A stretch of 64,000 bases of DNA from Candidatus Woesearchaeota archaeon (GCA_937912225.1 CALDOJ010000036.1:31191-95190); one strand, 5' to 3'. Counted from the first letter of the stretch, positions 13,369-27,553 are shown. Numbers and translations: made by a program. The notes: generated from the sequence alone by a model not told the origin.

Positions 13369-16300
13369 TCATTGTTTTTTCTTTAATCGTTTAATTTCTT
13401 CTTTTAGTTTGATCATTTGTAATTCTCTATTAATTGCATACGTATGAAATTTTTCAAGTTCTTCAGTTCTTCTCTTCAATGCTTCATCAGATTTTTTTCT
13501 ATGAGTAACATCTCTAAGAGCTCCTGCTATTCCAATAATCTTCCCAGAAGAATTTTTAATAGGTGCTTCATCAATCTCAGCCCAAAATATTTCTCCATTT
13601 TTCTTCTTGAATTCTAAAATATAAGGTTTTTGAATTACTCCTGTCTTTAAAGCTTTCACAGTTAGTTTTAAACCTTCATCATTAATAGGGTTTTTTGTTG
13701 TTAAAGTAGTCCATTTAACCATCATCTCTTCTGGTGTGTAACCAAATACTCTTTTAGAAAGAGGATTCACATATGATAATTTATGATTTGTATCATGAAT
13801 GTAGAACATGTCATCACTATGTTCAATAATAGTTTTATATTTTTTCTCACTAGCTTCTAACAAGTTCTCTGCTTCTTTTTGATCAGTTATATCTCTAAAT
13901 ATTTCCATAATAACTTTTTTACCTTTAAGATTCATACCAACATGATTAATTTCATAAGTTCTATTCCCAGCAACCCCTGTTGTAATAATACTTCTTCGCT
14001 CACCTAATTTAATAGGTTTCTTCAATGGACAATCACCACATTGTTTTTTATTATCCTTATAAAGATTATAACATTTCTTTCCAATTGCTTTTTTTCCAAA
14101 AATGTTTAAGAAAAATTCATTCATGTAAAGAATATTTAAGTTTTCATCAACAATATCCATTCCTTCAGGTAAAGCCTTAAGAATATTTTCTGAAAACTCT
14201 TTTTCTTTTCGAAGTTCTCCTTCCGCAGTCTTTATATTTGTGATATCTGAAAGAACTCCCTCATAACCTTTCGCCACACCATTTTTATTATATACAATTC
14301 TAACACTATCTCGCACCCATTTTATATCTCCAGTCTTAGTTTTAAGTTTATACTCACTAAAAAAGTATTTATCTTTTTTCTTAAGAGCTTTATTTAAAAC
14401 AGGAGTTATACGCGTTACATCATCCTCAAACATTAGACTAACATACGATCTAACTTTGTTATTAATAACATCACTAACAGGAAAACCTGTAACTTCTTTA
14501 AATGCAAAACTTGCAAAAGAAAAAGTCCAATTCATATCACATTTGTAAACAACACCAGGAACAGTGTCTATCATATTTCTAAATTGTTCCTCGCTTTCTT
14601 TTAATTTTTCTTCTGCAAGTTTTTTATCTGTAATATCTTGAGTTGTTCCTATTAATTTAACTACAACTCCTTTCTCTTTTTTAGTTTTGCATCTTGCATT
14701 TACCCACACAATGTTCCCAGAAGGTTGAACTAAACGTATTTCTATATTATATCCAACACCTGTTTTAGTAGTATTCGCAACAGAATCATTAAATAAATTC
14801 CAATCCTTTGGATGAATATATTTCTTATGCTCTTTATAATTAAGTTCTCCTTTTTTTGGATCAATACCAAATATTTTAAATAATTGTTCAGACCAAATAG
14901 GTTGTGCAGTTTTAACATCAAAACTCCAACTTCCAATACTGGCTACTTCTTGTGCTTCCATTAATTGTTCTTCACTTACTATTAATTCTTCTTCTGCTTG
15001 TTTTCTTTCAGTAATATCTCTAATAACACCAACTACTTTAACTGGTTTATTATTCTCATAAATTAATTGTCCAGATTCTTCAGCAAAAATATATTTTCCA
15101 TTCTTAAGTTTAAGTCTGAATTCTGTTGTCGTAACTTTTCCCGTCTTCCAGAGCATTTCAAAATCTTTCATAACAGATTTCAAATCATCAGGATGAACAA
15201 AATTAGACAAAGGTTTTCCAAGAACTTCTTTTACTCTATAACCATATTTACCAATATTATCTGAAACAAAAATAATATTTCCATTAATATCATAACTATA
15301 AATTATGTCTGAGACTTTATTAACAAGAGTTTTGAATTTTTCTTCACTTTCTTTTAACTTTTTCTTTGAAAGTTCTCTGGAAGTAATATCTTGAAAAATA
15401 CAATGTGTTCTTTGAAACACACCATTTTCATCATATTCTGCAGTTCCATTATATTCAACAAGGATATGTTCGCCATTTTTTTGTTTCATAGAAAAGAGAA
15501 TATCACAAGCAGTACCTGTTTTTTTAAAATTAGAAAAATTTGATTTAAAATCATTTAATTTATCAGATGAAACAAACTCTGAAAAATTCTTACCAATAAC
15601 ATCTTGTTTTTTATATCCAAGAATGTTTAACCAAGCAGGATTAACGTCTAATAAATCCCCGTTTGAATCTAAAGATTGATATGGAACTGGAATTTTTTGG
15701 TAAACTGTTCTAAATTTATTCTCGCTTTCTATTAACTTAGTTTCAAAAAGCTTTTTTTCAGTTATGTCTTGAGTTATTCCAATTGCATTTATTGCTTTAC
15801 CTTTTTTATCAAATAATATCTTTGCTTTTTCTTTTACCCACTTTACTTTTCCTTTTACTATAATACGATGTTCAAGATTATAAACTCCAGACTTTAAACC
15901 TTCAGTCCACTTTTTAGCAACATATTCTTTGTCATCAGGATGAATGGTTGCTAAAAAACTTGATAAATTTAGAGAAGCTCCTTGTTTAACTCCAAATATC
16001 TTATAATTTTGTTCAGTCCATTCTAAAATGTCATTAACAATATCTAACTTCCAAGTTCCAATCAAACCAATTTCTTGCGATTTTAATAATTTTGATTCAC
16101 TTTCTTTTAAAGCTTCTTCTGAAAGTTTTTTTTCAGTAATATCAACTGCAGCAGCATAAATATATTTACCGGCATGCGTTGTTTGCCATTCTAAAGTTCT
16201 ATAAGAACCATTCTTATGTTTATATCGATTAACAAAATTAATTATAGAGTCTCCTTTTAGTTGTTTTTCTTTAAGCTCAACAGCTATTCTTTTTAAATCA

Positions 16301-17742
16301 TCAGGATGAGAAAGTTTAGTCCAACCAAGATCTAAAAATTCTTTTTTAGTATAACCCAACATAGATTTACAAGAATTATTAACATTAATTATAGTCCCAT
16401 CAACTTTTGAAATAGTCATTAAAACAGGCGCAGATTCAAAAATATCTTTTAATTTTTCTTCACTTTCTCTCAAATCTTCTTCTGCTTTCTTACGTTCTGT
16501 TGTTATAGTAAAATAAACTGATATGCCTTCTTTAGAAGGGTAAACTCTAACATCATACCAATTAATATAAGGTTTCTTTCCAAAAAAGATTTCAAAAGTA
16601 ACTAATTTATTATTTTTTAAAGCATAAGTATATTTTTCTTCAAATATACTTCCCTTAGCTTCTTTAAACACTTCATTAAATATTTGTTTGCCTAAAATAT
16701 CTTTGCTCTTTTTATTTAAAAGTTCTTCAGATTTTTTATTAAAATAAGTAAATCTAAGGTCTTGATTTAGTGTGAAAAATGCATCACTAATGCTTTCCAC
16801 AGTTGTTCTAAGTTTCTCTTCACTTTCAATTAATTTTTTTCCTATTCTATTTTTTCTCAGAAAATTGTTGAAAAGACCACTTATTGTTGAAATTTCGTCC
16901 TTAACTTTTTTATCTATTTTCGTCTCAGATTCAACAATATCCAAACCTATAAATCCTTTTAATTCATTGTTCTCTGTTAAAGGTATGGTGATTAAAGATT
17001 TGATTTTTTGTAATTGAAAATGTTTTTTTTCTAATTTTGCTTCAGAAGGTAATTTTGCTACACTTTCAACAACAAAAGGTTTTAGTTTTAGTATTTGTTT
17101 ATTAAACCAAGGTAATTCTTTTTTTAAATTAATATTTTTTAAATTATTTATTTCTGGCTTCACTCCTTTTCTACACCATTCATGAGTATTTGACATAAAC
17201 TTTCCTGAAACAGAAAAAATATAACTTCTATCTGCATGAAAATAATTTCCAATAGTTTCTAAAGCTTTATTTATAACATCATCAACTAATTCTTTATCAT
17301 AATCAATAAAAGACATAGAAAGTTCATTTAAGATATTCTCAAACAACAATTTTTGCTTTAAAAGTTTTTCTGCGTTTTTTTGTTCAGTAATATCTCTAAG
17401 AATTGTTTGTAAAGCAATTACTTTACCATTTTTCTTTATTGGTCGACTTTTATACTCCATAAAAAAGTTTCCTTTCGGAGCAATTATTTCAACAGAACCA
17501 TGAGTTGGTTTACCTTTAGCTAAGTCAAGCATTTCTTTTGTAAGCTGAAGAACATGTTTTTTTACAACCAATTTATACGTGGACTCACCAATTAAATCTG
17601 ATTCTTTAAAGCCATATTTATTAACTGCTTTATTTGCATAAAGAACTCTACCTTTTAGATCTATAAATAGAATTATATCTGTAAAGTTATCAAACAGGTC
17701 TGATTTAAAATTACTAGTACTAATCTCTGGTTTTTTACCCAT
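13369..17742 (-). CDS. Cytoplasmic multi-PAS/PAC (about 10 repeats) plus GAF sensor protein lacking a catalytic output domain
   Basis: 1457 aa. PAS/PAC signatures recur throughout (…DITE(Q/R)K…AEE.L…SEEK(L/F)…). A GAF-like block near residues 150-300. A Cys cluster CYNLYKDNKKQCGDCPLKK. Ends in …RRTEELEKFHTYAINRELQMIKLKEEIKRLKKKQ. The 13-nt gap to the SBP gene indicates co-transcription. Confidence 0.8.
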   Translation of the reverse strand: MGKKPEISTSNFKSDLFDNFTDIILFIDLKGRVLYANKAVNKYGFKESDLIGESTYKLVVKKHVLQLTKEMLDLAKGKPTHGSVEIIAPKGNFFMEYKSRPIKKNGKVIALQTILRDITEQKNAEKLLKQKLLFENILNELSMSFIDYDKELVDDVINKALETIGNYFHADRSYIFSVSGKFMSNTHEWCRKGVKPEINNLKNINLKKELPWFNKQILKLKPFVVESVAKLPSEAKLEKKHFQLQKIKSLITIPLTENNELKGFIGLDIVESETKIDKKVKDEISTISGLFNNFLRKNRIGKKLIESEEKLRTTVESISDAFFTLNQDLRFTYFNKKSEELLNKKSKDILGKQIFNEVFKEAKGSIFEEKYTYALKNNKLVTFEIFFGKKPYINWYDVRVYPSKEGISVYFTITTERKKAEEDLRESEEKLKDIFESAPVLMTISKVDGTIINVNNSCKSMLGYTKKEFLDLGWTKLSHPDDLKRIAVELKEKQLKGDSIINFVNRYKHKNGSYRTLEWQTTHAGKYIYAAAVDITEKKLSEEALKESESKLLKSQEIGLIGTWKLDIVNDILEWTEQNYKIFGVKQGASLNLSSFLATIHPDDKEYVAKKWTEGLKSGVYNLEHRIIVKGKVKWVKEKAKILFDKKGKAINAIGITQDITEKKLFETKLIESENKFRTVYQKIPVPYQSLDSNGDLLDVNPAWLNILGYKKQDVIGKNFSEFVSSDKLNDFKSNFSNFKKTGTACDILFSMKQKNGEHILVEYNGTAEYDENGVFQRTHCIFQDITSRELSKKKLKESEEKFKTLVNKVSDIIYSYDINGNIIFVSDNIGKYGYRVKEVLGKPLSNFVHPDDLKSVMKDFEMLWKTGKVTTTEFRLKLKNGKYIFAEESGQLIYENNKPVKVVGVIRDITERKQAEEELIVSEEQLMEAQEVASIGSWSFDVKTAQPIWSEQLFKIFGIDPKKGELNYKEHKKYIHPKDWNLFNDSVANTTKTGVGYNIEIRLVQPSGNIVWVNARCKTKKEKGVVVKLIGTTQDITDKKLAEEKLKESEEQFRNMIDTVPGVVYKCDMNWTFSFASFAFKEVTGFPVSDVINNKVRSYVSLMFEDDVTRITPVLNKALKKKDKYFFSEYKLKTKTGDIKWVRDSVRIVYNKNGVAKGYEGVLSDITNIKTAEGELRKEKEFSENILKALPEGMDIVDENLNILYMNEFFLNIFGKKAIGKKCYNLYKDNKKQCGDCPLKKPIKLGERRSIITTGVAGNRTYEINHVGMNLKGKKVIMEIFRDITDQKEAENLLEASEKKYKTIIEHSDDMFYIHDTNHKLSYVNPLSKRVFGYTPEEMMVKWTTLTTKNPINDEGLKLTVKALKTGVIQKPYILEFKKKNGEIFWAEIDEAPIKNSSGKIIGIAGALRDVTHRKKSDEALKRRTEELEKFHTYAINRELQMIKLKEEIKRLKKKQ

Positions 17743-17788: not shown

Positions 17789-18925
17789 TTATTCGTCGGA
17801 ACTTTTAAACATATCTTCTGCAGTTGTTGGTTTTGTTTCAGATTCTTGTTCTGTTTGTACAACTGGTTCAGCTTTAGCAGGTGCAGAGTCTATAGATGCA
17901 AGTTCTGCAGGTGCAGTTTGTTTAACAGGTTCTTCTTCAACAGACTTTTCTTCGCTTTCACCTTCAGCTTTTACTTCTTGCTTTTTTCCTCCAAACAAAC
18001 CAAAAAGTTTTTTCTTTTCTTCAGGCTTAGATTCTTCTTCACTGTTTCTTTCTTCAGCTTCTGATTCTTCCAAATTAACCTTATACTTCTTTTGTAATTT
18101 ATCAGTTAATTGTTTAAACATTAATTTTAAATCAGTTTTTGTATGTTTACTTCTTTCGTCTAATAATTTAATAACTGTGCCTGTATGTTTCTCAAAATCA
18201 TTAAATTTGTTAAGCAAATCAACGAATTCTTTTTTCTCAGCTTTCTGATCAGTTTGAACTCTCATTTTATCAAAATCAGCTTGCATTTTTTTGAACTCAC
18301 GATTTATATCTTTAACTTGTGAATCAAATTTATCAAATTCAGAAAACTTTTTCTCAACATCTAAAAAAATCGTTTCAACTCTATCAGCATGTCTTTCAAC
18401 AATTGACTCGACTTTTTTAAGATTAGCCAACTCATTTTTTATTTCTTCATGTAATTTTATTATTTGCTCAGTTCCTTTGTAAACATCCATTTGACCACGC
18501 ATACCTTTCAACTGAGACATGATATCCTTCATCAAAGATTCATTTCCTTCAATGTTGGCCTTAAGAGCTTCAATTTTCCCATCTGTTTTTCGAAGTTCAG
18601 TCATGAATACACTTGGTTGAACTGTTTCTACTTCATCAATGGCTTTTGTGGCTTTTACTTCTACTTTTGAAAAAGCTTGTTCTAAATCATTAAGCATACC
18701 TCTAATCTCACCCATTTGTTCAGTTACAATTCCAAATCTTTCAGTAGTGGATTTTCTTATCTCATTTAAAGAATCAATCTGACCTTTTATTTTAGCCAGT
18801 TCTATTTCTACTTGTCCACCAAGATTAGCACCTCTATTTTTAGGGGATGATTCTTCTATTTCCTGCTCAGCAGGATTCTCATCACCTTCTCCTATAGTAG
18901 GGCCTGATTTATTCCAAAAAGCCAT
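17789..18925 (-). CDS. Coiled-coil protein with acidic, low-complexity C-terminal tail (hypothetical)
   Basis: 378 aa. Heptad-rich central region (…LEQAFSKVEVKATKAIDEVE…LANLKKVESIVERHADRV…). Glu/Lys-rich tail …EESEAEERNSEEESKPEEKKKLFGLFGG…. Last gene of the seven-gene minus-strand operon. Confidence 0.55.
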   Translation of the reverse strand: MAFWNKSGPTIGEGDENPAEQEIEESSPKNRGANLGGQVEIELAKIKGQIDSLNEIRKSTTERFGIVTEQMGEIRGMLNDLEQAFSKVEVKATKAIDEVETVQPSVFMTELRKTDGKIEALKANIEGNESLMKDIMSQLKGMRGQMDVYKGTEQIIKLHEEIKNELANLKKVESIVERHADRVETIFLDVEKKFSEFDKFDSQVKDINREFKKMQADFDKMRVQTDQKAEKKEFVDLLNKFNDFEKHTGTVIKLLDERSKHTKTDLKLMFKQLTDKLQKKYKVNLEESEAEERNSEEESKPEEKKKLFGLFGGKKQEVKAEGESEEKSVEEEPVKQTAPAELASIDSAPAKAEPVVQTEQESETKPTTAEDMFKSSDE

Positions 18926-19775
18926 TATCTACCTCTTTTTTTTCTTTTAATATGTTTGACATTATTCTCTTATCCCTTATCCCTTTAATGTTTTTCGCTA
19001 ACTCAGGTTGATGAAAAACAAATTCAATCCACATTGAAAAATCATTATCATAGTTTCGTGTATGAAACTCAAAATCCTCAGGGTTCATAAAACTTAAAGC
19101 AGTTATTAAATCTTGTATTGATGTTAAAAGCTTCCCACTTTTCAAACGAAAGAATTTTTCAGGATCTATTACTAGTTCAAGTTTTGGTTCTGTAACTGTT
19201 TCATCAACTTCACTCTGAGGCTCTACTTCTAGCTTATCAGATTCTGTGGTTGTGACTGTCTCTTCAGAAGTATTTTCTGGCTTAACTGGTTCATTCTGAG
19301 GCTCTACTTCTGGTACATAAGAAGTTTCCTTCTGAACACTAGAACTTTCAGTTCTTTGTGTACTAGTAGCTTCGTTACTATTTTCTTCTTTTATATCTAA
19401 ATCTTCTCTGTTTGAATTATTCTCTTTCATTCCTTCTTCAAAAGCTTGAGCCTTTTCTTCATTTAACTTTTCTTTAATCTTTCTTTCAACTTCTGCTTTA
19501 ATATCTACCAAAGGTAATCTTGATTCTTCAATTAATTCCTCTTCTGAAAATTTTAAAATATTCTTAATAACTTCATAGTCTTCTTGTTTTCGAGTATACT
19601 GAGCCCATCGTAATTTTGAATCAAGACTTCTAAGATGAAAGTCTGCTATTGAAGGATTATGACCTTCTTTTCTTAATTCAGTTATTCTTGACTTTAACTC
19701 TCGAACATGACTTCTCAAATCCTCTGTTAAAATTTCATTTTCTTTATCCGAAACTAATTGTTTATTTTTACTCAT
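18909..19775 (-). CDS. Acidic linker protein with C-terminal copy of a conserved ~65-aa 'KNDF-W' module (hypothetical)
   Basis: C-terminal EKFFRLKSGKLLTSIQDLITALSFMNPEDFEFHTRNYDNDFSMWIEFVFHQPELAKNI, preceded by a long E/T/V-rich acidic low-complexity region. 4-nt overlap with the next gene. Confidence 0.6.
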   Translation of the reverse strand: MSKNKQLVSDKENEILTEDLRSHVRELKSRITELRKEGHNPSIADFHLRSLDSKLRWAQYTRKQEDYEVIKNILKFSEEELIEESRLPLVDIKAEVERKIKEKLNEEKAQAFEEGMKENNSNREDLDIKEENSNEATSTQRTESSSVQKETSYVPEVEPQNEPVKPENTSEETVTTTESDKLEVEPQSEVDETVTEPKLELVIDPEKFFRLKSGKLLTSIQDLITALSFMNPEDFEFHTRNYDNDFSMWIEFVFHQPELAKNIKGIRDKRIMSNILKEKKEVDNGFLE

Positions 19776-20602
19776 TTCAATTTCTCATTTACTTCATCAT
19801 TCAAGTCATTTATATCAGAATCAAGTGCTCTTACTTGTCCTTCTACAAAACTTGGTTTTCCAAAAAATAATTTTCCTAAAAATTTATTATTACTAATTTT
19901 TTCTTTTATTTTTTGAAAAAAGTTTTTCTTTGATTTTTCTTTTGAATGAACTGATTCTTTCTTTTTAACTTTCTTTTTCACTTCCTTTTTTACTTCTTCG
20001 TCTTCCTTCTTAATTTCTTCAGCTTCTTTTTCAACTTTTTTCTCAGATTTTTCCTCTCTTGCTTCTTTTGATTCATCAAGTGCTTTTTGAATTTCTACAA
20101 CTTCAGGACTATTGTCTTCTTCAATTGTTTTATTCAAATTAATTTCTGGCAATTTAGAATCAGAATCAACTTCTTTTTCTGGCTCAACCAAGGGTTTAAC
20201 TTCTTGTTCATCAGCTTCTTTATTTGAATCGTCAGAAGTTTCATCTTTGAACATATCATCAATTTTCTTATTAGATTCTTGTTCTGATTCAAAAGGTTCT
20301 TTCTTAACAGGTTCTGATTCTGTTTTCTGATTTTCATCCGGATTCTTAATTAAATCGTGAAAATAATCATCGATTAATTTAATCATAGAATCCTTATCTT
20401 TAGCTTTTTCTAAAACATCCGCCAGTTCATTATTTTTGAAAACACCTTTAACCCAAATAGCAAAATCATTCTTCTCTGAATTAACATGCAAAGCGAATTC
20501 TTCATCAGATCCTTTATCTAAAAAAACTCTAAATTCACCTATAGTTCTCAAAACTTCTCCATTGCCTAAATAAAAATATTCCTCTTGTTTCAAATTCCTC
20601 AC
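19772..20602 (-). CDS. Protein with N-terminal 'KNDF-W' module followed by a highly charged K/E-rich low-complexity tail (hypothetical)
   Basis: N-terminal EYFYLGNGEVLRTIGEFRVFLDKGSDEEFALHVNSEKNDFAIWVKGVFKNNELADVLEK, then a KE-rich disordered region. Confidence 0.6.
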   Translation of the reverse strand: MRNLKQEEYFYLGNGEVLRTIGEFRVFLDKGSDEEFALHVNSEKNDFAIWVKGVFKNNELADVLEKAKDKDSMIKLIDDYFHDLIKNPDENQKTESEPVKKEPFESEQESNKKIDDMFKDETSDDSNKEADEQEVKPLVEPEKEVDSDSKLPEINLNKTIEEDNSPEVVEIQKALDESKEAREEKSEKKVEKEAEEIKKEDEEVKKEVKKKVKKKESVHSKEKSKKNFFQKIKEKISNNKFLGKLFFGKPSFVEGQVRALDSDINDLNDEVNEKLK

Positions 20603-20639
20603 CTCTTATGTGGATTTATTATTATTTGTTGTTTTCTAA

Positions 20640-22829
20640 TTAACCCTCCTGTAAAACATTAATTAATTCATCTTTTGAGTTTGCTGTTTGCATTCTATCG
20701 GCTAATTGGTCGTTGTGAAATACTCCTCGAACCCAACTAGCAAAATCGTTTTTATCATTAGACACATATTGTTTAAAATCATCATCATTAGTTTCTCTTA
20801 AATACTCGACTAATTCAAGTACGGATTTTATTTCTTTACCGCTTTGTAATCTAAAATATTGATCGGATGAAATGTCTTTTTTAACAACAATTTTTTCTAA
20901 ATCAGCATCTAATTCCTCTTCTTCCTTTTTCTTTTCAGTTCGAGATTCAGAATTTTCAACAAGTTTAGTTTCTGTTTCTAAATGTTCTTCTAATTCTTTT
21001 TTATCTGAATTTTCCAATTGAACAGGCTCTTCTGCTTCTTCTTTTACAGCAGTTTCTGGTTTAACTTCTGATTCAGAATCATCATCAGCCATCGCAGCAA
21101 ACGCTTTTTCTTGTTCTGTTATAGGCTCTTTCTTTTCAGGTTCAACAGCTTCTGCAAGTTTTGCCTCCTCTTCCTTTTCCTCTTTTTCTTCTACAGCTTC
21201 AACTGCTTCTTTATCAGATGTTGAGTCAAACCACTTTTCAGATTCTAATAATTTTTTCTCTTCATCAGTTAACTCTGGAAGTTTCTGTTTTTTACTCCTT
21301 AAATCAATCAAATCTAACATTTGTTGTTTATCTGGTTTAACCATCATATGCTGTGCTAATTCTTTATCTCCAACAGCATCTTTAACCCAATCAGCAAACT
21401 CATTCTTTTCTTTATTTACATGCTGATCATAATCACTTTGTTTCATCGCAGATAACTCATCATATAATGCTTTCAAACTAATAACTAACATACCATTTAC
21501 TAAACTTAGAATTTTATCAGGCGACACTTCTTTTCTGAAAAGATCAACTTCAACTGTTTCACCATCAGCGCTGCCACTAGCAGCTTCAACTGCTTCAGCT
21601 TCTTCTCTTGATTGTTTTGCTGCGTTAATAGATGCTTTAAAGTCATCTTCAGATACAAGTTTCTTTTCTTTCTTCTTAGGAACTTTTCCAATTTTTTCCC
21701 AATTTTTCTTAACTCTAGGTCTTAATCCTTCTAAATATACTTCAACCATGTTAAAATTTCCAACTTTTACTTTATCTAAAGATAATTTTAGTTCCAATTT
21801 CATATCAAATACATCAATTTCTAACTCTTCTAATTGTTCAAGTTCATACACTAATTGATCAATTTCATCATTGTATTTGTTATACTTTTCAAGTTCTTCA
21901 TCTGTTAATCTTTGTACTGAATGAAGGATTGGTCTGAATGTTACGAAGTATGGTTGACCTCTATTATATGACGCGTTTTGAACCATTCCACTTCCAACAC
22001 TGGCTTTAACTAATGATTTTAAAACACTATCACCATACTTAGTTTTAATTCTATCTAAGTCTCCTTCATCTCTAGTTCTCATTTGAACTTCTGTGTTAAT
22101 GTTCGCTTTAATCTGACCTACGAAGTCGGCCAAAACCTGAGATACTAACATAATCCCTATTCCCCACTTACGAAACTCTCTACATCCTCTTTCAATCTGT
22201 ACGAATCCATCACCACTACCTCCAAACTTAGGTAGAATTCTGTGAATCTCATCATAAATAATCATGAGTTTTAATGGCTCACTTTCAGTAGGTCTTTCAT
22301 CAAAAATTTGTCTAATAGTATTAGCTACAACTAAATCAATTCCTTTCGGATCCAACTTATTCATAGCATAAATTTGAATTTCGCCAGGTTTTGCATTCTT
22401 CTGAATTTCAATTACTTCTCGAGGATTAGTTATTTGTTTAACATTTCCATTGAATGCTTTTGCATCTTTAGGTTTCATTCCAAATCCAGGATAATACTTC
22501 AACATTCCTTTTTCTTTACATGGACGCAACATTCCGCTCCATTGAGCTGTAGGGTCAAAGGCAATTACCGCTACATCTTTTAACAAACATTCTTCTATTA
22601 TTACTTGAGCTGAAATAGATTTTCCTCCACCAGTTGACCCTGCTACAATTGAATGAATCTTTAACTGGTCTAAATCAAAATAAGTTTTATGGTCTGTTTC
22701 AGCAATTTTTCCCCACCAACCACTTCTAGGTCCTGGTTTTGGTAACTGAGTATAATCAACTTTAAGATGGAACCTTTTATTGGAATCCATTTTTTTCCAG
22801 ATTATAAAAGCTATTAATGCAATTGTCAA
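20640..22829 (-). CDS. Membrane-anchored HerA/FtsK/VirB4-like P-loop ATPase fused to two 'KNDF-W' modules
   Basis: N-terminal TM helix (MTIALIAFIIW). Walker A AGSTGGGKS. HerA-type Walker B LMIIYDEIHRILP. FDPTAQW resembles the HerA/DUF87 block after the P-loop. The C-terminal half has two copies of the module (…KEKNEFADWVKDAV… and …NDKNDFASWVRGVFHNDQLADRM) separated by acidic linkers. Confidence 0.7.
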   Translation of the reverse strand: MTIALIAFIIWKKMDSNKRFHLKVDYTQLPKPGPRSGWWGKIAETDHKTYFDLDQLKIHSIVAGSTGGGKSISAQVIIEECLLKDVAVIAFDPTAQWSGMLRPCKEKGMLKYYPGFGMKPKDAKAFNGNVKQITNPREVIEIQKNAKPGEIQIYAMNKLDPKGIDLVVANTIRQIFDERPTESEPLKLMIIYDEIHRILPKFGGSGDGFVQIERGCREFRKWGIGIMLVSQVLADFVGQIKANINTEVQMRTRDEGDLDRIKTKYGDSVLKSLVKASVGSGMVQNASYNRGQPYFVTFRPILHSVQRLTDEELEKYNKYNDEIDQLVYELEQLEELEIDVFDMKLELKLSLDKVKVGNFNMVEVYLEGLRPRVKKNWEKIGKVPKKKEKKLVSEDDFKASINAAKQSREEAEAVEAASGSADGETVEVDLFRKEVSPDKILSLVNGMLVISLKALYDELSAMKQSDYDQHVNKEKNEFADWVKDAVGDKELAQHMMVKPDKQQMLDLIDLRSKKQKLPELTDEEKKLLESEKWFDSTSDKEAVEAVEEKEEKEEEAKLAEAVEPEKKEPITEQEKAFAAMADDDSESEVKPETAVKEEAEEPVQLENSDKKELEEHLETETKLVENSESRTEKKKEEEELDADLEKIVVKKDISSDQYFRLQSGKEIKSVLELVEYLRETNDDDFKQYVSNDKNDFASWVRGVFHNDQLADRMQTANSKDELINVLQEG

Positions 22830-22850
22830 TAAAGAACCAATTATTAATCC

Positions 22851-24614
22851 CTATTGCCAGAAAAATAATCCAAAGAAATACAACTGCCAAAATGGTGTTA
22901 CTACTTCAAAAATTTCACTTGTTCCAGCGCTAAATCCCAAATAATTAGCAGTTACTCTAATAATATAAACTCCTCTGGGTGCATCTTTAGGAATCTTAAC
23001 TGTTTTTAATAATGAAAAAGATGTTTTCAATAACACATTAGTACTATAAGTCCATAAAGTTGTGTTACCAGTTTCATCTTGAATAGTATAAAATAATGAA
23101 ACAGGATATTCTTGATCAGATAATAAATTTTTCAAATCTGTTTTGAATTGTAAATCTTCATTTGGATGAACTTGTTTCTTAGAAGAATCTAATTCCATTA
23201 ACAAAGCTTGTACTGGAAGTTGATTTGCAGATATTAATTCAACAGTTAATGGAATAGATGCATTAAAATCTCCTGTTATTTCTATAGTTCCATTATAAGT
23301 TCCTAATTCTCCTCTTCCAAAAATAGTTGGAGTAATACTACCCCTTTCATTTGGAGCAACTAATAATTTATTCTTATCCAACTCAACTAAATTAGCAATA
23401 TCACCTGTTACTTTGAAAAATGCCTGGGTTGTTCCTTCTTTATAACTATAAACAACTATTTCTTCTTGTAAGAAGTTTCCTAATCTAAGTTTTCTATTAA
23501 TAGTATTAAGTGAAATAACTATATCTGTTCCTTCAACTCTTTTTGGTTGTTCTACTTGTGGTACGAGTGGCGCTTCACCAGGACCAACATCATCACCAGG
23601 ACCAACATCTCTACCAGGACCAATACCAGTAAAATCGTTAGGTGTTACTGCTTGAACCAATATGATATTATGAATTGTTGTTTGATTCTTTACAATTGAA
23701 ACATTGTTTGCATATACATCATAACCTGATTTTATTGCAAAAATAGTATATTGTCCTTCAGGAGCTGTAATATTATAAAAACCAAACGTGTCAGATGCAT
23801 CATTATAATTCGAAATATGTATAATTACATCAGATATTGGAACTCCTGCTTCAGTTGTTACAATTCCTGCAATATTTCCTGGATTTGGTAAATCACCTTC
23901 TCCTTCAGCACATATATCATATGGATCTGGAAAGAAATAATATCTTTGCTCTGTAGCATTTGGAATTGGTAATATCATTTGATAATTTAACTGTCTTCCG
24001 TTAAAACCATTAGTCCAATTTCCGAGTTTTGGTGCTACAAATATTAATTCTCCATTACCATCTTGAAGAACACCCAAAGTGAAATTTTCAATACTTCCAT
24101 CCCCTCCATTAAGTGTTGTGGCTGGAATAGTTATTGGAGTATTACCTATTTCAATTGTAATATTATCTTTAAAAGTATTTGTTCCTGATAACTTTGCAGT
24201 GAATGAATCATATTGGTCCATTCCTAAAAAAGTATCTAGCACCGTTAAATTAGCTGGCTGAATATTTACAAAATCTAATAATTGAGGCATAACTGTACTT
24301 GCATACACTTCATGATCAATATCTGTTTCTAAACAATCAAATAATAAATTTGCTTCTAAAGTTTCCAATCCTTCTAAATCATAAAATGCTTCATTTTGAA
24401 ATCCTGGAACTCTTACTGCATAACCATATACTCCTGACCATAAAAAAGCAGGTAAACTCATATCAATATTTACTTCATAAATTACTCCTCCTTTCCCTGA
24501 AAAAGTATTAGTTGCCCAACCAATAAACTTGCTTGCAAAAACCAATCCGAATATAGCAAGAGCTACTAATAAAACTAATAATACTGTTTGTGCAGCTTTC
24601 TCTACATGTTTCAT
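22851..24614 (-). CDS. Secreted/membrane-anchored cell-surface protein with CarboxypepD_reg-like beta-sandwich domain and GPG repeats
   Basis: N-terminal signal-anchor (TVLLVLLVALAIFGLVFA). IAGIVTTEAGVPISDVIIHISNYNDASDTFGFYNITAPEGQYTIFAIKSGYD is a carboxypeptidase-regulatory-like fold. GPGRDVGPGDDVGPGEAP repeats. Hydrophobic C-terminus FWQLYFFGLFFWQ. Several N-glycosylation sequons. Confidence 0.6.
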   Translation of the reverse strand: MKHVEKAAQTVLLVLLVALAIFGLVFASKFIGWATNTFSGKGGVIYEVNIDMSLPAFLWSGVYGYAVRVPGFQNEAFYDLEGLETLEANLLFDCLETDIDHEVYASTVMPQLLDFVNIQPANLTVLDTFLGMDQYDSFTAKLSGTNTFKDNITIEIGNTPITIPATTLNGGDGSIENFTLGVLQDGNGELIFVAPKLGNWTNGFNGRQLNYQMILPIPNATEQRYYFFPDPYDICAEGEGDLPNPGNIAGIVTTEAGVPISDVIIHISNYNDASDTFGFYNITAPEGQYTIFAIKSGYDVYANNVSIVKNQTTIHNIILVQAVTPNDFTGIGPGRDVGPGDDVGPGEAPLVPQVEQPKRVEGTDIVISLNTINRKLRLGNFLQEEIVVYSYKEGTTQAFFKVTGDIANLVELDKNKLLVAPNERGSITPTIFGRGELGTYNGTIEITGDFNASIPLTVELISANQLPVQALLMELDSSKKQVHPNEDLQFKTDLKNLLSDQEYPVSLFYTIQDETGNTTLWTYSTNVLLKTSFSLLKTVKIPKDAPRGVYIIRVTANYLGFSAGTSEIFEVVTPFWQLYFFGLFFWQ

Positions 24615-27553
24615 GATGCAATCCTCATTTGTAAAGTTTTTATTTTTTCAAACAACTCGGTTTTATAATCTTCATCTAATCTCTTATACACTTCTTCTAG
24701 CTGATGATAATAGTATCTTGCTTTTCCAATATTATCAGCTTTTATATTATTCTCAATATCTGAAACTAATTTCTGTGAATAACCATGATCCAACTTAGTA
24801 CATAAATTCCTAATTTTTTGATAAACTTCATTTTTTGAAGGAGTAGATAATTTTTCATAATACAATTTAATCTCTCTATAAATAAAATGAGCTTTATCAA
24901 GGTCATGAACTTCTAAATTATCAAGAGCATCATTTATCAATAAGTTAATAGTATGAATTTTCTTATCGCCAAATAAAACATAGTAAAAGAATCTCATCTT
25001 ATCTATTCTAATATGACTATGCCCTGCATATACTAATACTAAAACCATTATTAAAACTATCAAATAACCTTTTTTATCCATATTAACATTAAAGTCAAAT
25101 ATGGAATTTCCAGTTATAGAAGTTACCGCTTTAGTATATGAATCTTCAAACAAGACTGTTTGTGCTTTATCAATGTTCTCCAAATCTATTTGTTCATCAA
25201 AATAATAAATTATTTTTTGAGGGTTATCAAATTCAATTAATGGATCTTTCTCCAAAATTTTATGATTTGTTATTATTGTTAAATCATCGGTTGTCTCTGC
25301 TAATTCTTTTGGTATAGATTCTACAACTCTTAATTTATATGTGCTATTCACATATTTTAATTCTTTAACCACTAAAGTAATAGTTTTCTTTGTTCCATCA
25401 AAGTATTCTAATTCAACATTTCTGGCAGTTGTTGATATAGTTGCTTTTGATTGAGTTAATTTACTTGCTTCAAAAAATTTCTCTTTATCTAAATATTTTT
25501 TTATAGTTGAATATTTATCAGATACTTCTTTTAATTCAGGATCTCGAATATATTTAATAAACGCTTTATTTTCTAACACATTCACATTAACAATTATAGA
25601 ATTATAAGTATCAGATATTTTAGTTTCTAATGTTTGTATTTTATCTTCTTTTTCTTTTTCAGATAAAACATTATTGTAAGTTGCATCATTTATATCTCTA
25701 TAAGCTCTTTGTATTGTTACAATTGCACTTTTGATATTTTTCTCTATATCTAATACATCTATTACCCGTCGTTCATGAAGTCCTTTAGTTGATAAAGTAT
25801 CAATTATTGCGTATAATTCATCAGTAAATTCTGTTTCTGAAAAAGTTGTTTTTACGTCTATTACTTCATCAATTATTTTAAAAGTTCTTTCTTCTGTTGC
25901 TTTTGAATTCTTATCCGAATCTTCACATTCAATTTTCCATTTATAATCTTTATAATCTAATCCTGTCAATGAAAATATTTGTTCTGTGTTATCTGAAACT
26001 ATTTTTGTTCCTTTCTTTGTATACCAACTTTCATCCTTCTCTGCAGTATACAACACACAAGTTGTATCTCCTTGATCAGATACTTTAAATTTAACATCTA
26101 TACTTTTCGAATTAAATTCTTGTTTATCTGCAGGTGAAATAAGTTCAATACTTGGCGCAGTTACATCTTTTCCTTCTATTTCTGCAAGGTAAGTAATATT
26201 TTCCCTTAACCAGATTTCATCATAGAGAACTTCATAATTAGATTTTAAAACCGTTAATCTGTAAGTGCCTCTTGAAATATAAAATGTGTATTGACCTTTA
26301 CTATTTGTTATTCCTTCTCTATTTGCTAGTTCGATTCTTGCTCCAGATATAACACTTCCAGAATTTATATCTTTAACAGTTACAGCCAATTCCAATACAT
26401 TCTTAACAGTTATTGTTGTATTAAGAGACTTAGAATTTCCTTCTTCGTCAGTAACTGTTAACTTTTCAATGTATGAACCAGAATTTTCATAAGACATATT
26501 TATAGTATCATTAGTTTTAGTTGTTCCATCGCTTAAAGTCCAAAGATAAGTATATTCACCAATTCCGCCATTTACATAAGCTTCTAGTTCTGTTGGTTCA
26601 TCAACATCAACAGATTTATCTCCAACAACAGAAATTGTTATACTATTTTCAACTTCAAAACTTATTACATCAGTTAAAGTTGTATTTTGATATTCTAACT
26701 CTGTATTTGCAGCATAAGTTCCTACTTCTGTTGTGTAAGTCATTGATTCTGTTCTTGGAAATGTTCCATTTGTTATGGTTATTGTTTCTCCTAATGTGAA
26801 CCATCCTCCGCTTGAAGTTCCTATTTCAATTGTCATATTTGAACCATTTAATGCATTTATTGTGAAAGTTCCTGCTTCTCCTAAGCTGTAAGTTTCTTTA
26901 TTCAAACTAATGTTCAAGAATGGTGTTTCAATTTCTTCTTCAACGGTTTCATTCTCTATTGTAAATATTCTATTGCCACTAATATTTGCATTCCCAACAC
27001 TATCTTGACAACTTATATTCCAGTAATGCATTCCACTATCTGCAGAAATATTAACTATTTTTGAAGTTCCATTAATTGCAGTTATTGCTTGTATTGCATC
27101 ATCTAAAGTTAATATACAATTCATGCTTGTTGCAAAGTTATCTGTTGCTACGAAGGTTACATTCGTTAAATTAGTTAAGTTTGCATTATTGATTGGATTC
27201 TCTAAAACAATAATTGGTGCTGAGAGATCAATATTTATTGTTCGCTCAATAATACTTTCGCTGTTGTTCTCATCTGAGCAGTTAATATACCATTCATGAA
27301 CTCCTTCGGTCAAGGTTTCAGTAAATGTATTACTGCTTTCTGCTGATTTACTTTGTTCTTCTATTTGGTCTATAAATAAACTACAAGTGGTAGAATTAGT
27401 GTAATTAGTGAGTGTGAATGTAAAGTTAACATTTGAAGTATTATACACTGCATTATCTACAGGTACAATATCAGACATTGTTGAAGAAATTATTTGAAGA
27501 CTTAAAACTAACATGACCATCAACATAATTAATTTTGCTGATTTACTTCTCAT
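24611..27553 (-). CDS. Large type-I membrane surface glycoprotein (Ig/PKD-like and CarboxypepD_reg-like domains) with helical-repeat cytoplasmic tail
   Basis: Signal peptide (LIMLMVMLVLSLQIIS). PKD-like (…TVTDEEGNSKSLNTTITV). CarboxypepD_reg-like (AVTVKDINSGSVISGARIELANREGITNSKGQYTFYISRGTYRL). TM helix LIVLIMVLVLVYAG near residue 835. ~130-aa helical tail with two Y-rich repeats. 4-nt overlap with the downstream gene. Confidence 0.65.
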   Translation of the reverse strand: MRSKSAKLIMLMVMLVLSLQIISSTMSDIVPVDNAVYNTSNVNFTFTLTNYTNSTTCSLFIDQIEEQSKSAESSNTFTETLTEGVHEWYINCSDENNSESIIERTINIDLSAPIIVLENPINNANLTNLTNVTFVATDNFATSMNCILTLDDAIQAITAINGTSKIVNISADSGMHYWNISCQDSVGNANISGNRIFTIENETVEEEIETPFLNISLNKETYSLGEAGTFTINALNGSNMTIEIGTSSGGWFTLGETITITNGTFPRTESMTYTTEVGTYAANTELEYQNTTLTDVISFEVENSITISVVGDKSVDVDEPTELEAYVNGGIGEYTYLWTLSDGTTKTNDTINMSYENSGSYIEKLTVTDEEGNSKSLNTTITVKNVLELAVTVKDINSGSVISGARIELANREGITNSKGQYTFYISRGTYRLTVLKSNYEVLYDEIWLRENITYLAEIEGKDVTAPSIELISPADKQEFNSKSIDVKFKVSDQGDTTCVLYTAEKDESWYTKKGTKIVSDNTEQIFSLTGLDYKDYKWKIECEDSDKNSKATEERTFKIIDEVIDVKTTFSETEFTDELYAIIDTLSTKGLHERRVIDVLDIEKNIKSAIVTIQRAYRDINDATYNNVLSEKEKEDKIQTLETKISDTYNSIIVNVNVLENKAFIKYIRDPELKEVSDKYSTIKKYLDKEKFFEASKLTQSKATISTTARNVELEYFDGTKKTITLVVKELKYVNSTYKLRVVESIPKELAETTDDLTIITNHKILEKDPLIEFDNPQKIIYYFDEQIDLENIDKAQTVLFEDSYTKAVTSITGNSIFDFNVNMDKKGYLIVLIMVLVLVYAGHSHIRIDKMRFFYYVLFGDKKIHTINLLINDALDNLEVHDLDKAHFIYREIKLYYEKLSTPSKNEVYQKIRNLCTKLDHGYSQKLVSDIENNIKADNIGKARYYYHQLEEVYKRLDEDYKTELFEKIKTLQMRIAS

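Follow-up and report, generated by a model that had tools for sequence, protein, structure and literature searches.

Single-unit copies of the OrfY/DUF5752 fold on a membrane ATPase and two neighbouring proteins of a Woesearchaeota operon

Why should a membrane ATPase and two proteins encoded beside it carry the same small sequence module? The question is raised by a 64-kb stretch of DNA (29% G+C) from a Candidatus Woesearchaeota archaeon (GCA_937912225.1 CALDOJ010000036.1:31191-95190), called the window here, whose coordinates are used unless another locus is named. Three consecutive minus-strand genes in it, A (18909..19775; 288 amino acids, aa), B (19772..20602; 276 aa), and C (20640..22829; 729 aa, encoding a HerA/FtsK-like ATPase), are separated by short or negative gaps and so appear to form one operon. 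An earlier note on this DNA had described four copies of an unrecognised module in these genes. The analysis reported here identifies the four segments, with high confidence, as homologous, independently folding single units (~80 residues) of the OrfY/DUF5752 fold. As an explanation of the locus as a whole, docking or pairing of such units on tethers near the membrane ATPase fits best, a view that is put forward tentatively.

The peptides quoted in the earlier note lie at residues 206–263 of A, 8–64 of B, and 429–495 and 657–713 of C. Pairwise identity among the four copies is 28–36% over 67–81 residues (41–64 bits, BLASTP), and their Smith–Waterman scores (102–166) are far above those of 1000 composition-preserving shuffles of each pair (25–28 ± 5; z = 14–27; no shuffle >55), so that the similarity is not compositional. 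A hidden Markov model (HMM) of the four copies recovered exactly these four from a six-frame translation of all 64 kb, in which no fifth copy was found (expectation value, E, ~1 for the next-best match). The earlier claims of four homologous modules in three consecutive genes, and of a likeness that is not mere low-complexity bias, are therefore upheld. The extent of the module had been drawn too narrowly, as 57–67 aa ending at 'L-A', whereas the real unit is ~76–85 aa long and takes in ~20 more residues that cover a further helix, K-[DE]-x-[LMI]-[ILV]-x-x-L. The list of invariant positions also had to be redefined, on an alignment of 81 copies (the 4 window copies and 77 from ATPase homologues), across which the conserved set is G14, L23, F35, H38, V39, K43, N44 (98%), A47, W49 (100%), L59-A60, K69, and L76. 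Together with N44, residues H38, K43, D45, and W49 are near-invariant.

The description of the module as unrecognised has to be given up, as Pfam PF19027 (DUF5752) already covers it, a structure of the family has been solved, and public precomputed annotation assigns PF19027 to this very ATPase. Taken singly, the window copies match the 208-position PF19027 profile at 14.5–21.7 bits (21.7 and 21.2 bits for the two ATPase copies), each just under the gathering score of 23 bits, and the whole ATPase exceeds that threshold at 32.1 bits (E = 9.4e-8). A match to a domain of known function was named in the earlier note as an outcome that would overturn its view; DUF5752, however, is a family without an assigned function, so that this outcome has not arisen, and the literature library searched contained nothing relevant on DUF5752, PF19027, 4CSO, or OrfY.

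When the 81-copy profile was searched against PDB sequences, a single entry was returned, chain A of 4CSO (E = 2.5e-5), a Thermoproteus tenax protein that bears the PDB name 'ORFY protein, transcription factor'. The AlphaFold2 (AF2) model of the C-terminal ATPase copy is confident (predicted local distance difference test, pLDDT, 93.6; predicted template modelling score, pTM, 0.81) and consists of a beta-hairpin, a helix, a beta-bridge, and three helices, which is the fold of 4CSO. The likeness to OrfY (4CSO) and PF19027 thus comprises the same fold, detectable homology, and the core motif H...[KRT]-N-D-F-[AS]-x-W.

The 81-copy profile matches 4CSO twice, at residues 54–88 and 136–191. On PF19027, all four window copies fall in the same region (positions ~50–94), and other family members map to positions ~125–190 or across 14–189. 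From this two-halved mapping and the double match to 4CSO, DUF5752/OrfY is seen to be an internal duplication of which the window module is the single unit. OrfY/DUF5752 is a ~210-aa protein of two adjacent units, whereas the window units are single and lie on separate polypeptides or on disordered tethers, ~130 aa apart. Proteins A and B, with one unit each, lack the two-unit tandem body (~200 aa) of OrfY; the two ATPase units are 134 aa apart, and the AF2 model superposes only one of them on 4CSO. The genomic context differs as well, being a membrane ATPase operon in the window, whereas examined loci of OrfY kin elsewhere lie with GT4/GT5 and GH57 genes.

In T. tenax, orfY reportedly lies with treT (Kouril et al. 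2008). A word search and a genome scan with 56 aa of 4CSO chain A, taken from the alignment, gave no match, and the module gave none among the viral structures of BFVD (best E 0.96). Two weak NCBIfam matches are probably noise and were treated as such: copy A alone (aa 201–276, ~18948–19175) matches PknD (15.7–18.5 bits, E 4e-4 to 3e-3) at positions 618–695 of this chlamydial Ser/Thr kinase model, with the other three copies unmatched, and protein B matches chpXY.

The module is a folded, acidic, non-enzymatic-looking domain of the OrfY fold, carried on disordered tethers. Its net charge averages -2.9 over the 81 copies (-6, 0, -6, and -1 for the window copies), and the linkers beside the modules contain 28–37% D+E and 17–19% hydrophobic residues; the ATPase linker is modelled as disordered (pLDDT ~46–58). 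The earlier note was right, then, to see a small autonomous globular module, to describe the copies as set apart by disordered acidic linkers, and to regard the module as common to the motor and its neighbours, a combination of motor, B, and A that is kept in two further loci (L011 and L012; comparison loci are numbered in this way throughout). The middle ATPase copy represents a distinct subfamily (type I) specific to this ATPase, and the copies of A and B and the C-terminal ATPase copy are of a generic type II.

The protein encoded by gene C belongs, as judged from sequence, to the HerA/FtsK superfamily of P-loop ATPases. Its Walker A motif is GSTGGGKS (aa 64–71), it matches PF01935 (DUF87; 36.1 bits, cut-off 23.2) and PF05872 (HerA_C; 23.5 bits, cut-off 22), and distant HerA chains are found in the PDB (E 8e-5 to 5e-3). 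Models of DNA translocases and coupling proteins (CedD, TraD, FtsK_SpoIIIE) are matched weakly, and some homologues give weak TrwB/TraG/AAA_10 Pfam matches. PADLOC returned only generic HerA matches for the ATPase and none for A or B. A word-indexed search, which scored the 8,000 candidates sharing most words, yielded at least 696 homologues at E ≤ 1e-3; where a source is named, the label is mostly Woesearchaeota or Nanoarchaeota. The module is present in 119 of the 120 best homologues. Most homologues are ~1250 aa long and combine the ATPase in one polypeptide with an upstream part that corresponds to the 587-aa product of the gene upstream of C, which is laid out as a transmembrane (TM) helix, a CarboxypepD_reg-like extracellular part, and a second TM helix.

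In the window this polypeptide is broken. A single in-frame TAG at 22851-22853 (minus strand) splits what is one gene for ~1250–1350 aa in relatives, and it falls in the middle of the second TM helix (...LYFFGLFFWQ*GLIIGSLLTIALIAFIIWKK), at a codon that is TGG (Trp) in the closest fused homologue. The split form of the gene is seen again in at least 17 contigs, which come from at least four samples. Of the 47 open reading frames (ORFs) of the window, 7 end in TAG as a normal stop, so that the split resembles a fixed nonsense mutation or a gene fission more than recoding; on this count and given the TGG of the fused homologue, TAG recoding was rejected as the default cause.

How widely the module occurs became visible with an exhaustive profile search, which was needed because a word-indexed search with the four-copy alignment returned no homologues. 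Over 1.84 billion cluster representatives, HMMER gave 4,956 matching proteins (E ≤ 1e-3), of which 3,608 also reach E ≤ 1e-10; they are 77–1970 aa long and carry one to three copies. The best 147 matches comprise 55 single-copy, 89 two-copy, and 3 three-copy proteins, and a spacing of no more than 20 aa between the copies, as in OrfY, is seen in 52 of the 89. The architectures include HerA/DUF87 membrane ATPases with one or two C-terminal copies (Woese/Nanoarchaeota), KaiC-like ATPases with two or three N-terminal copies (Woesearchaeota), a MoxR AAA+ ATPase with an N-terminal copy and fusions to CheW and CheC (all in Methanosarcinales), and fusions to GH57 glycosidase (a Sumerlaeota bacterium and an Aenigmatarchaeote). 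There are also tail-anchored forms (module, Lys/Glu-rich linker, C-terminal TM helix), tandem pairs behind an unknown ~250-aa domain, and free-standing module proteins of 77–130 aa.

In three phyla, genes for a GT4/GT5 glycosyltransferase and a GH57 enzyme are followed by the module, which is fused to GH57 in the Sumerlaeota bacterium (L018, 3436-6228) and the Aenigmatarchaeote (L019, 2826-9201) and is a free 103-aa ORF after GH57 in an uncultured bacterium (L017, 3339-6240). Genes for glycogen synthase and a GDE_C debranching enzyme adjoin the triad of L019. These triads link the family to alpha-glucan metabolism. A different cluster is seen in L016 (677-8719), where three small module proteins, one free (102 aa) and two tail-anchored (196 aa and 157 aa), are encoded in succession ~2.6 kb downstream of a HerA-like ATPase with one copy. 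Next come two single-domain KaiC-like ATPase genes on the opposite strand.

The history of the operon is informative for the role of the module. The gene order conserved in Woese/Nanoarchaeota is a small RHH protein, a ~90-aa protein, a ~1000-aa PKD/Big surface protein, the TM-ATPase-module(s) protein, a ~170-aa helical protein, and a ~380–490-aa coiled-coil protein. The operon spans 17789..27553 (minus strand) of the window, has counterparts in L005, L007, L008, L009, L011, and L012, and lies near TruD and adenylate kinase genes in those loci. The N-terminal ~110 residues of protein A are homologous to the ~170-aa helical protein, which is the conserved operon partner of the ATPase and has no module in distant relatives. 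Protein B has no counterpart in the more distant operons. In L011 and L012, which belong to two other species-level genomes of Nanoarchaeota, a fused two-copy ATPase is followed by B-like, A-like, and coiled-coil proteins. Distant operons keep the N-terminal domain of A without the module; an operon partner that the motor already had therefore acquired the module in this subclade, which also gained an additional module-bearing adaptor. The alternative that the B C-terminus and the A N-terminal domain together correspond to the ~170-aa protein of relatives was dropped, as only the A domain aligns (E > 0.05 for the B C-terminus).

These observations suggest a docking mechanism, a tentative proposal that draws on domain architectures and gene neighbourhoods. 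In this Woese/Nanoarchaeota (DPANN) lineage, long acidic disordered tethers join the units to three proteins of one operon. Two units sit on the cytoplasmic C-terminus of the membrane-anchored HerA/FtsK-like ATPase, one on protein A, whose N-terminal domain is the conserved operon partner of the ATPase, and one on protein B, a lineage-specific protein with little beyond module, tether, and short C-terminal element. The unit, most likely non-catalytic, would keep tethered partners close to one another and to the ATPase at the membrane, either through module–module association, by which the two-unit body of OrfY would be re-formed in trans, or through binding of every copy to one common partner.

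Several findings are the grounds for this proposal. The addition of the module to a pre-existing partner of the motor is Rosetta-stone-like, and the set of two-copy ATPase, B-like, and A-like proteins recurs in L011 and L012. The many proteins made of module, tether, and anchor (the tail-anchored forms, those of L016, and B) suit adaptors or receptors rather than sensors or enzymes, and several module genes may cluster in one neighbourhood, as in L016. Tight tandems prevail among the two-copy proteins, nearly all of the best ATPase homologues carry the module, and the tethers are disordered. Fusion of the module to scaffolds and enzymes as unrelated as HerA, KaiC, MoxR, CheW, CheC, and GH57 proteins in archaea and bacteria has the pattern of a general-purpose adaptor.

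Other findings weigh against docking. The AF2 model of ATPase residues 428–729 does not show OrfY-like pairing of both copies (a weak observation, from 21 sequences and without predicted aligned error), and folding back of the ATPase copies into such a pair is thus unsupported. Relatives with a two-copy (L005, L007) or one-copy (L008, L009, L010) ATPase have no module-bearing neighbour within 10 kb, and docking of A or B therefore cannot be the general role of the module. The motif H-x4-[KR]-N-D-F-[AS]-x-W is kept from Thermoproteus to DPANN archaea, and three phyla have the module linked with genes of the GT4/GT5 and GH57 families; both facts would suit a ligand pocket equally well.

A bolder form of the docking proposal, which is doubtful, takes the ~80-residue OrfY unit as a general 'Velcro' domain for homotypic contacts, present in archaea and in some bacteria, whose single units pair in trans on disordered tethers. 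If this is true, a membrane-proximal network in DPANN archaea would link HerA-like and KaiC-like ATPases, tail-anchored receptors, and the adaptors A and B, and GT–GH57 sugar-enzyme complexes elsewhere would be held by the same pairing. DUF5752 would thereby get its first function, and a new modular interaction system would be recognised.

The main rival to docking is ligand sensing. The module would be a small-molecule sensor or regulatory domain whose ligand may be a metabolite related to alpha-glucans or trehalose, and it would signal carbon status to the ATPases, chemotaxis scaffolds, and glycosidases to which it is fused. This is unlikely, but it draws on the fusions to the GH57 C-terminus in L018 and L019, the free ORF directly after GH57 in L017, the preceding GT4/GT5 gene in all three loci, the glycogen synthase and debranching enzyme of L019, and the reported proximity of orfY and treT in T. 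tenax. In addition, the near-invariant polar and aromatic residues (H38, K43, N44, D45, W49) are carried by both OrfY repeats, and promiscuous fusion to CheW, CheC, and KaiC-like proteins is typical of sensor domains. However, many members consist of the module alone or of module, tether, and TM anchor, without an output domain, which is odd for a sensor; the motif may be no more than hydrophobic core and helix cap, with F46, W49, V50, V53, and F54 lined up along a single face of helix 2, whose N-cap is N44. The window operon, with its surface proteins, HerA-like ATPase, and coiled-coil protein, contains no sugar-metabolism gene.

Nucleic-acid binding, in keeping with the label that the depositors gave to OrfY, is very unlikely. 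The module would provide substrate recognition, in the manner of FtsK gamma, tethered to a membrane DNA translocase. In FtsK, the small gamma domain at the C-terminus of the motor, a basic winged helix that binds KOPS DNA and XerD, sits on a flexible linker and confers substrate or partner specificity. The window ATPase belongs by similarity to the same superfamily, has the weak translocase matches described above, and mirrors FtsK in its layout of TM segment, motor, flexible linker, and small globular domain. This is an analogy only, since no sequence or fold relationship exists between FtsK gamma and the acidic, beta-hairpin/four-helix module, which also occurs on neighbours of the motor and on unrelated proteins. 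DNA binding by the module is disfavoured because the modules are negatively charged and have no helix-turn-helix (HTH)-like fold match; neither a winged-helix fold nor a basic DNA-binding surface is present. The tethers are strongly acidic as well, and the GH57, CheW, and CheC fusions and the tail anchors would be unexpected of a DNA binder.

Tethered docking has a parallel in TraD of the F plasmid, a membrane hexameric ATPase whose flexible acidic C-terminal extension recruits the nearby-encoded TraM. This likeness, of an acidic flexible C-terminal extension on a membrane ATPase and an accessory protein encoded nearby, is again an analogy only: the contact in TraD is a short peptide, not a folded domain common to both partners, and no conjugation genes are present at the window operon or the compared loci. 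Finally, a compositional resemblance of K/E/D-rich low-complexity sequence in an AT-rich genome, without any true domain, might be suspected from the low G+C content and the low-complexity linkers around the modules, but it is excluded for practical purposes by the shuffles, the identity of the conserved residues (G, L, F, H, V, N, W), the confident AF2 fold that agrees with a crystal structure, and the 3,608 database representatives.

The features of the operon are collected in Table 1. Short basic-hydrophobic patches lie within the acidic disordered tails of two of its products: NKFLGKLFFGKPS in protein B (aa ~241–253, ~19844–19882) and KKKLFGLFGGKKQ in the 378-aa coiled-coil protein (aa ~305–318, ~17972–18013). 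Such patches, similar ones of which recur in L011 ('NVFGKLFGKKK') and L012, might form amphipathic helices that bind the membrane or serve as short motifs for docking. The gene immediately downstream of the operon, which shares its strand (13369..17742, minus), encodes a 1457-aa protein that consists almost wholly of PAS domains, with no recognisable output domain (kinase, GGDEF, etc.) among the matches seen; SBP_bac_3 and NMT1-like binding proteins follow it.

Table 1. Module copies, linkers, and neighbouring features of the operon (window coordinates).
Feature	Position	Strand	Support or remarks
Module copy 1, C-terminus of protein A (aa 202-285), type II	18921..19172	minus	Pfam DUF5752 20.0 bits, pairwise similarity
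Module copy 2, N-terminus of protein B (aa 2-86), type II	20345..20599	minus	Pfam DUF5752 14.5 bits, pairwise similarity
Module copy 3, middle of ATPase (aa 431-516), type I, followed by conserved K-x-L-P tail	21282..21539	minus	
Module copy 4, C-terminal copy of ATPase (aa 651-729), generic type II	20643..20879	minus	
Acidic disordered tether between ATPase copies (aa 517-650)	20880..21281	minus	37% D+E; pLDDT ~46-58, without secondary structure
Acidic/KE-rich linker of protein B (aa 87-225)	19928..20344	minus	33% D+E, 22% K+R, 17% hydrophobic
Acidic linker of protein A (aa 116-201)	19173..19430	minus	28% D+E, 17% hydrophobic
C-terminal element of protein B (aa 226-276): basic-hydrophobic patch NKFLGKLFFGKPS, then helical stretch	19775..19927	minus	Kept in B-like proteins of L011, L012; motif scan
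N-terminal helical domain of protein A (aa 1-115)	19431..19775	minus	phmmer matches to gene downstream of ATPase in L005, L007, L008, L010
HerA/FtsK-superfamily ATPase core and C-terminal helical region (aa 331-430)	21540..22829	minus	Pfam DUF87, HerA_C; Walker A
587-aa membrane/extracellular protein, CarboxypepD_reg-like	22851..24614	minus	N-terminal half of ATPase polypeptide in relatives
378-aa coiled-coil protein, conserved last operon gene	17789..18925	minus	phmmer E 1e-80 to 1e-130 against syntenic genes in L005, L007, L008, L011, L012
980-aa PKD-domain surface protein, conserved first large operon gene	24611..27553	minus	Pfam PKD_4; syntenic homologues in L005, L007, L008, L009

What is already known here is the family, which is catalogued, its structure, which is solved, and its presence on this ATPase, which public annotation flags; the single-unit nature of the module, its expansion in DPANN archaea, and its ATPase-centred contexts are mildly new. 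The building block of DUF5752 is a ~80-aa unit that also works singly. DPANN archaea have this unit in abundance, and it is found joined to three unrelated ATPase families as well as to chemotaxis scaffolds, GH57 enzymes, and membrane anchors. Its grafting in one lineage, through disordered tethers, onto a membrane HerA-like motor and the pre-existing operon partner of that motor is a natural 'Rosetta-stone' hint of a role in association. If docking or pairing is false, the locus is just another instance of a known DUF; if it is true, the module would offer a handle on a conserved surface-protein/ATPase operon of DPANN archaea.

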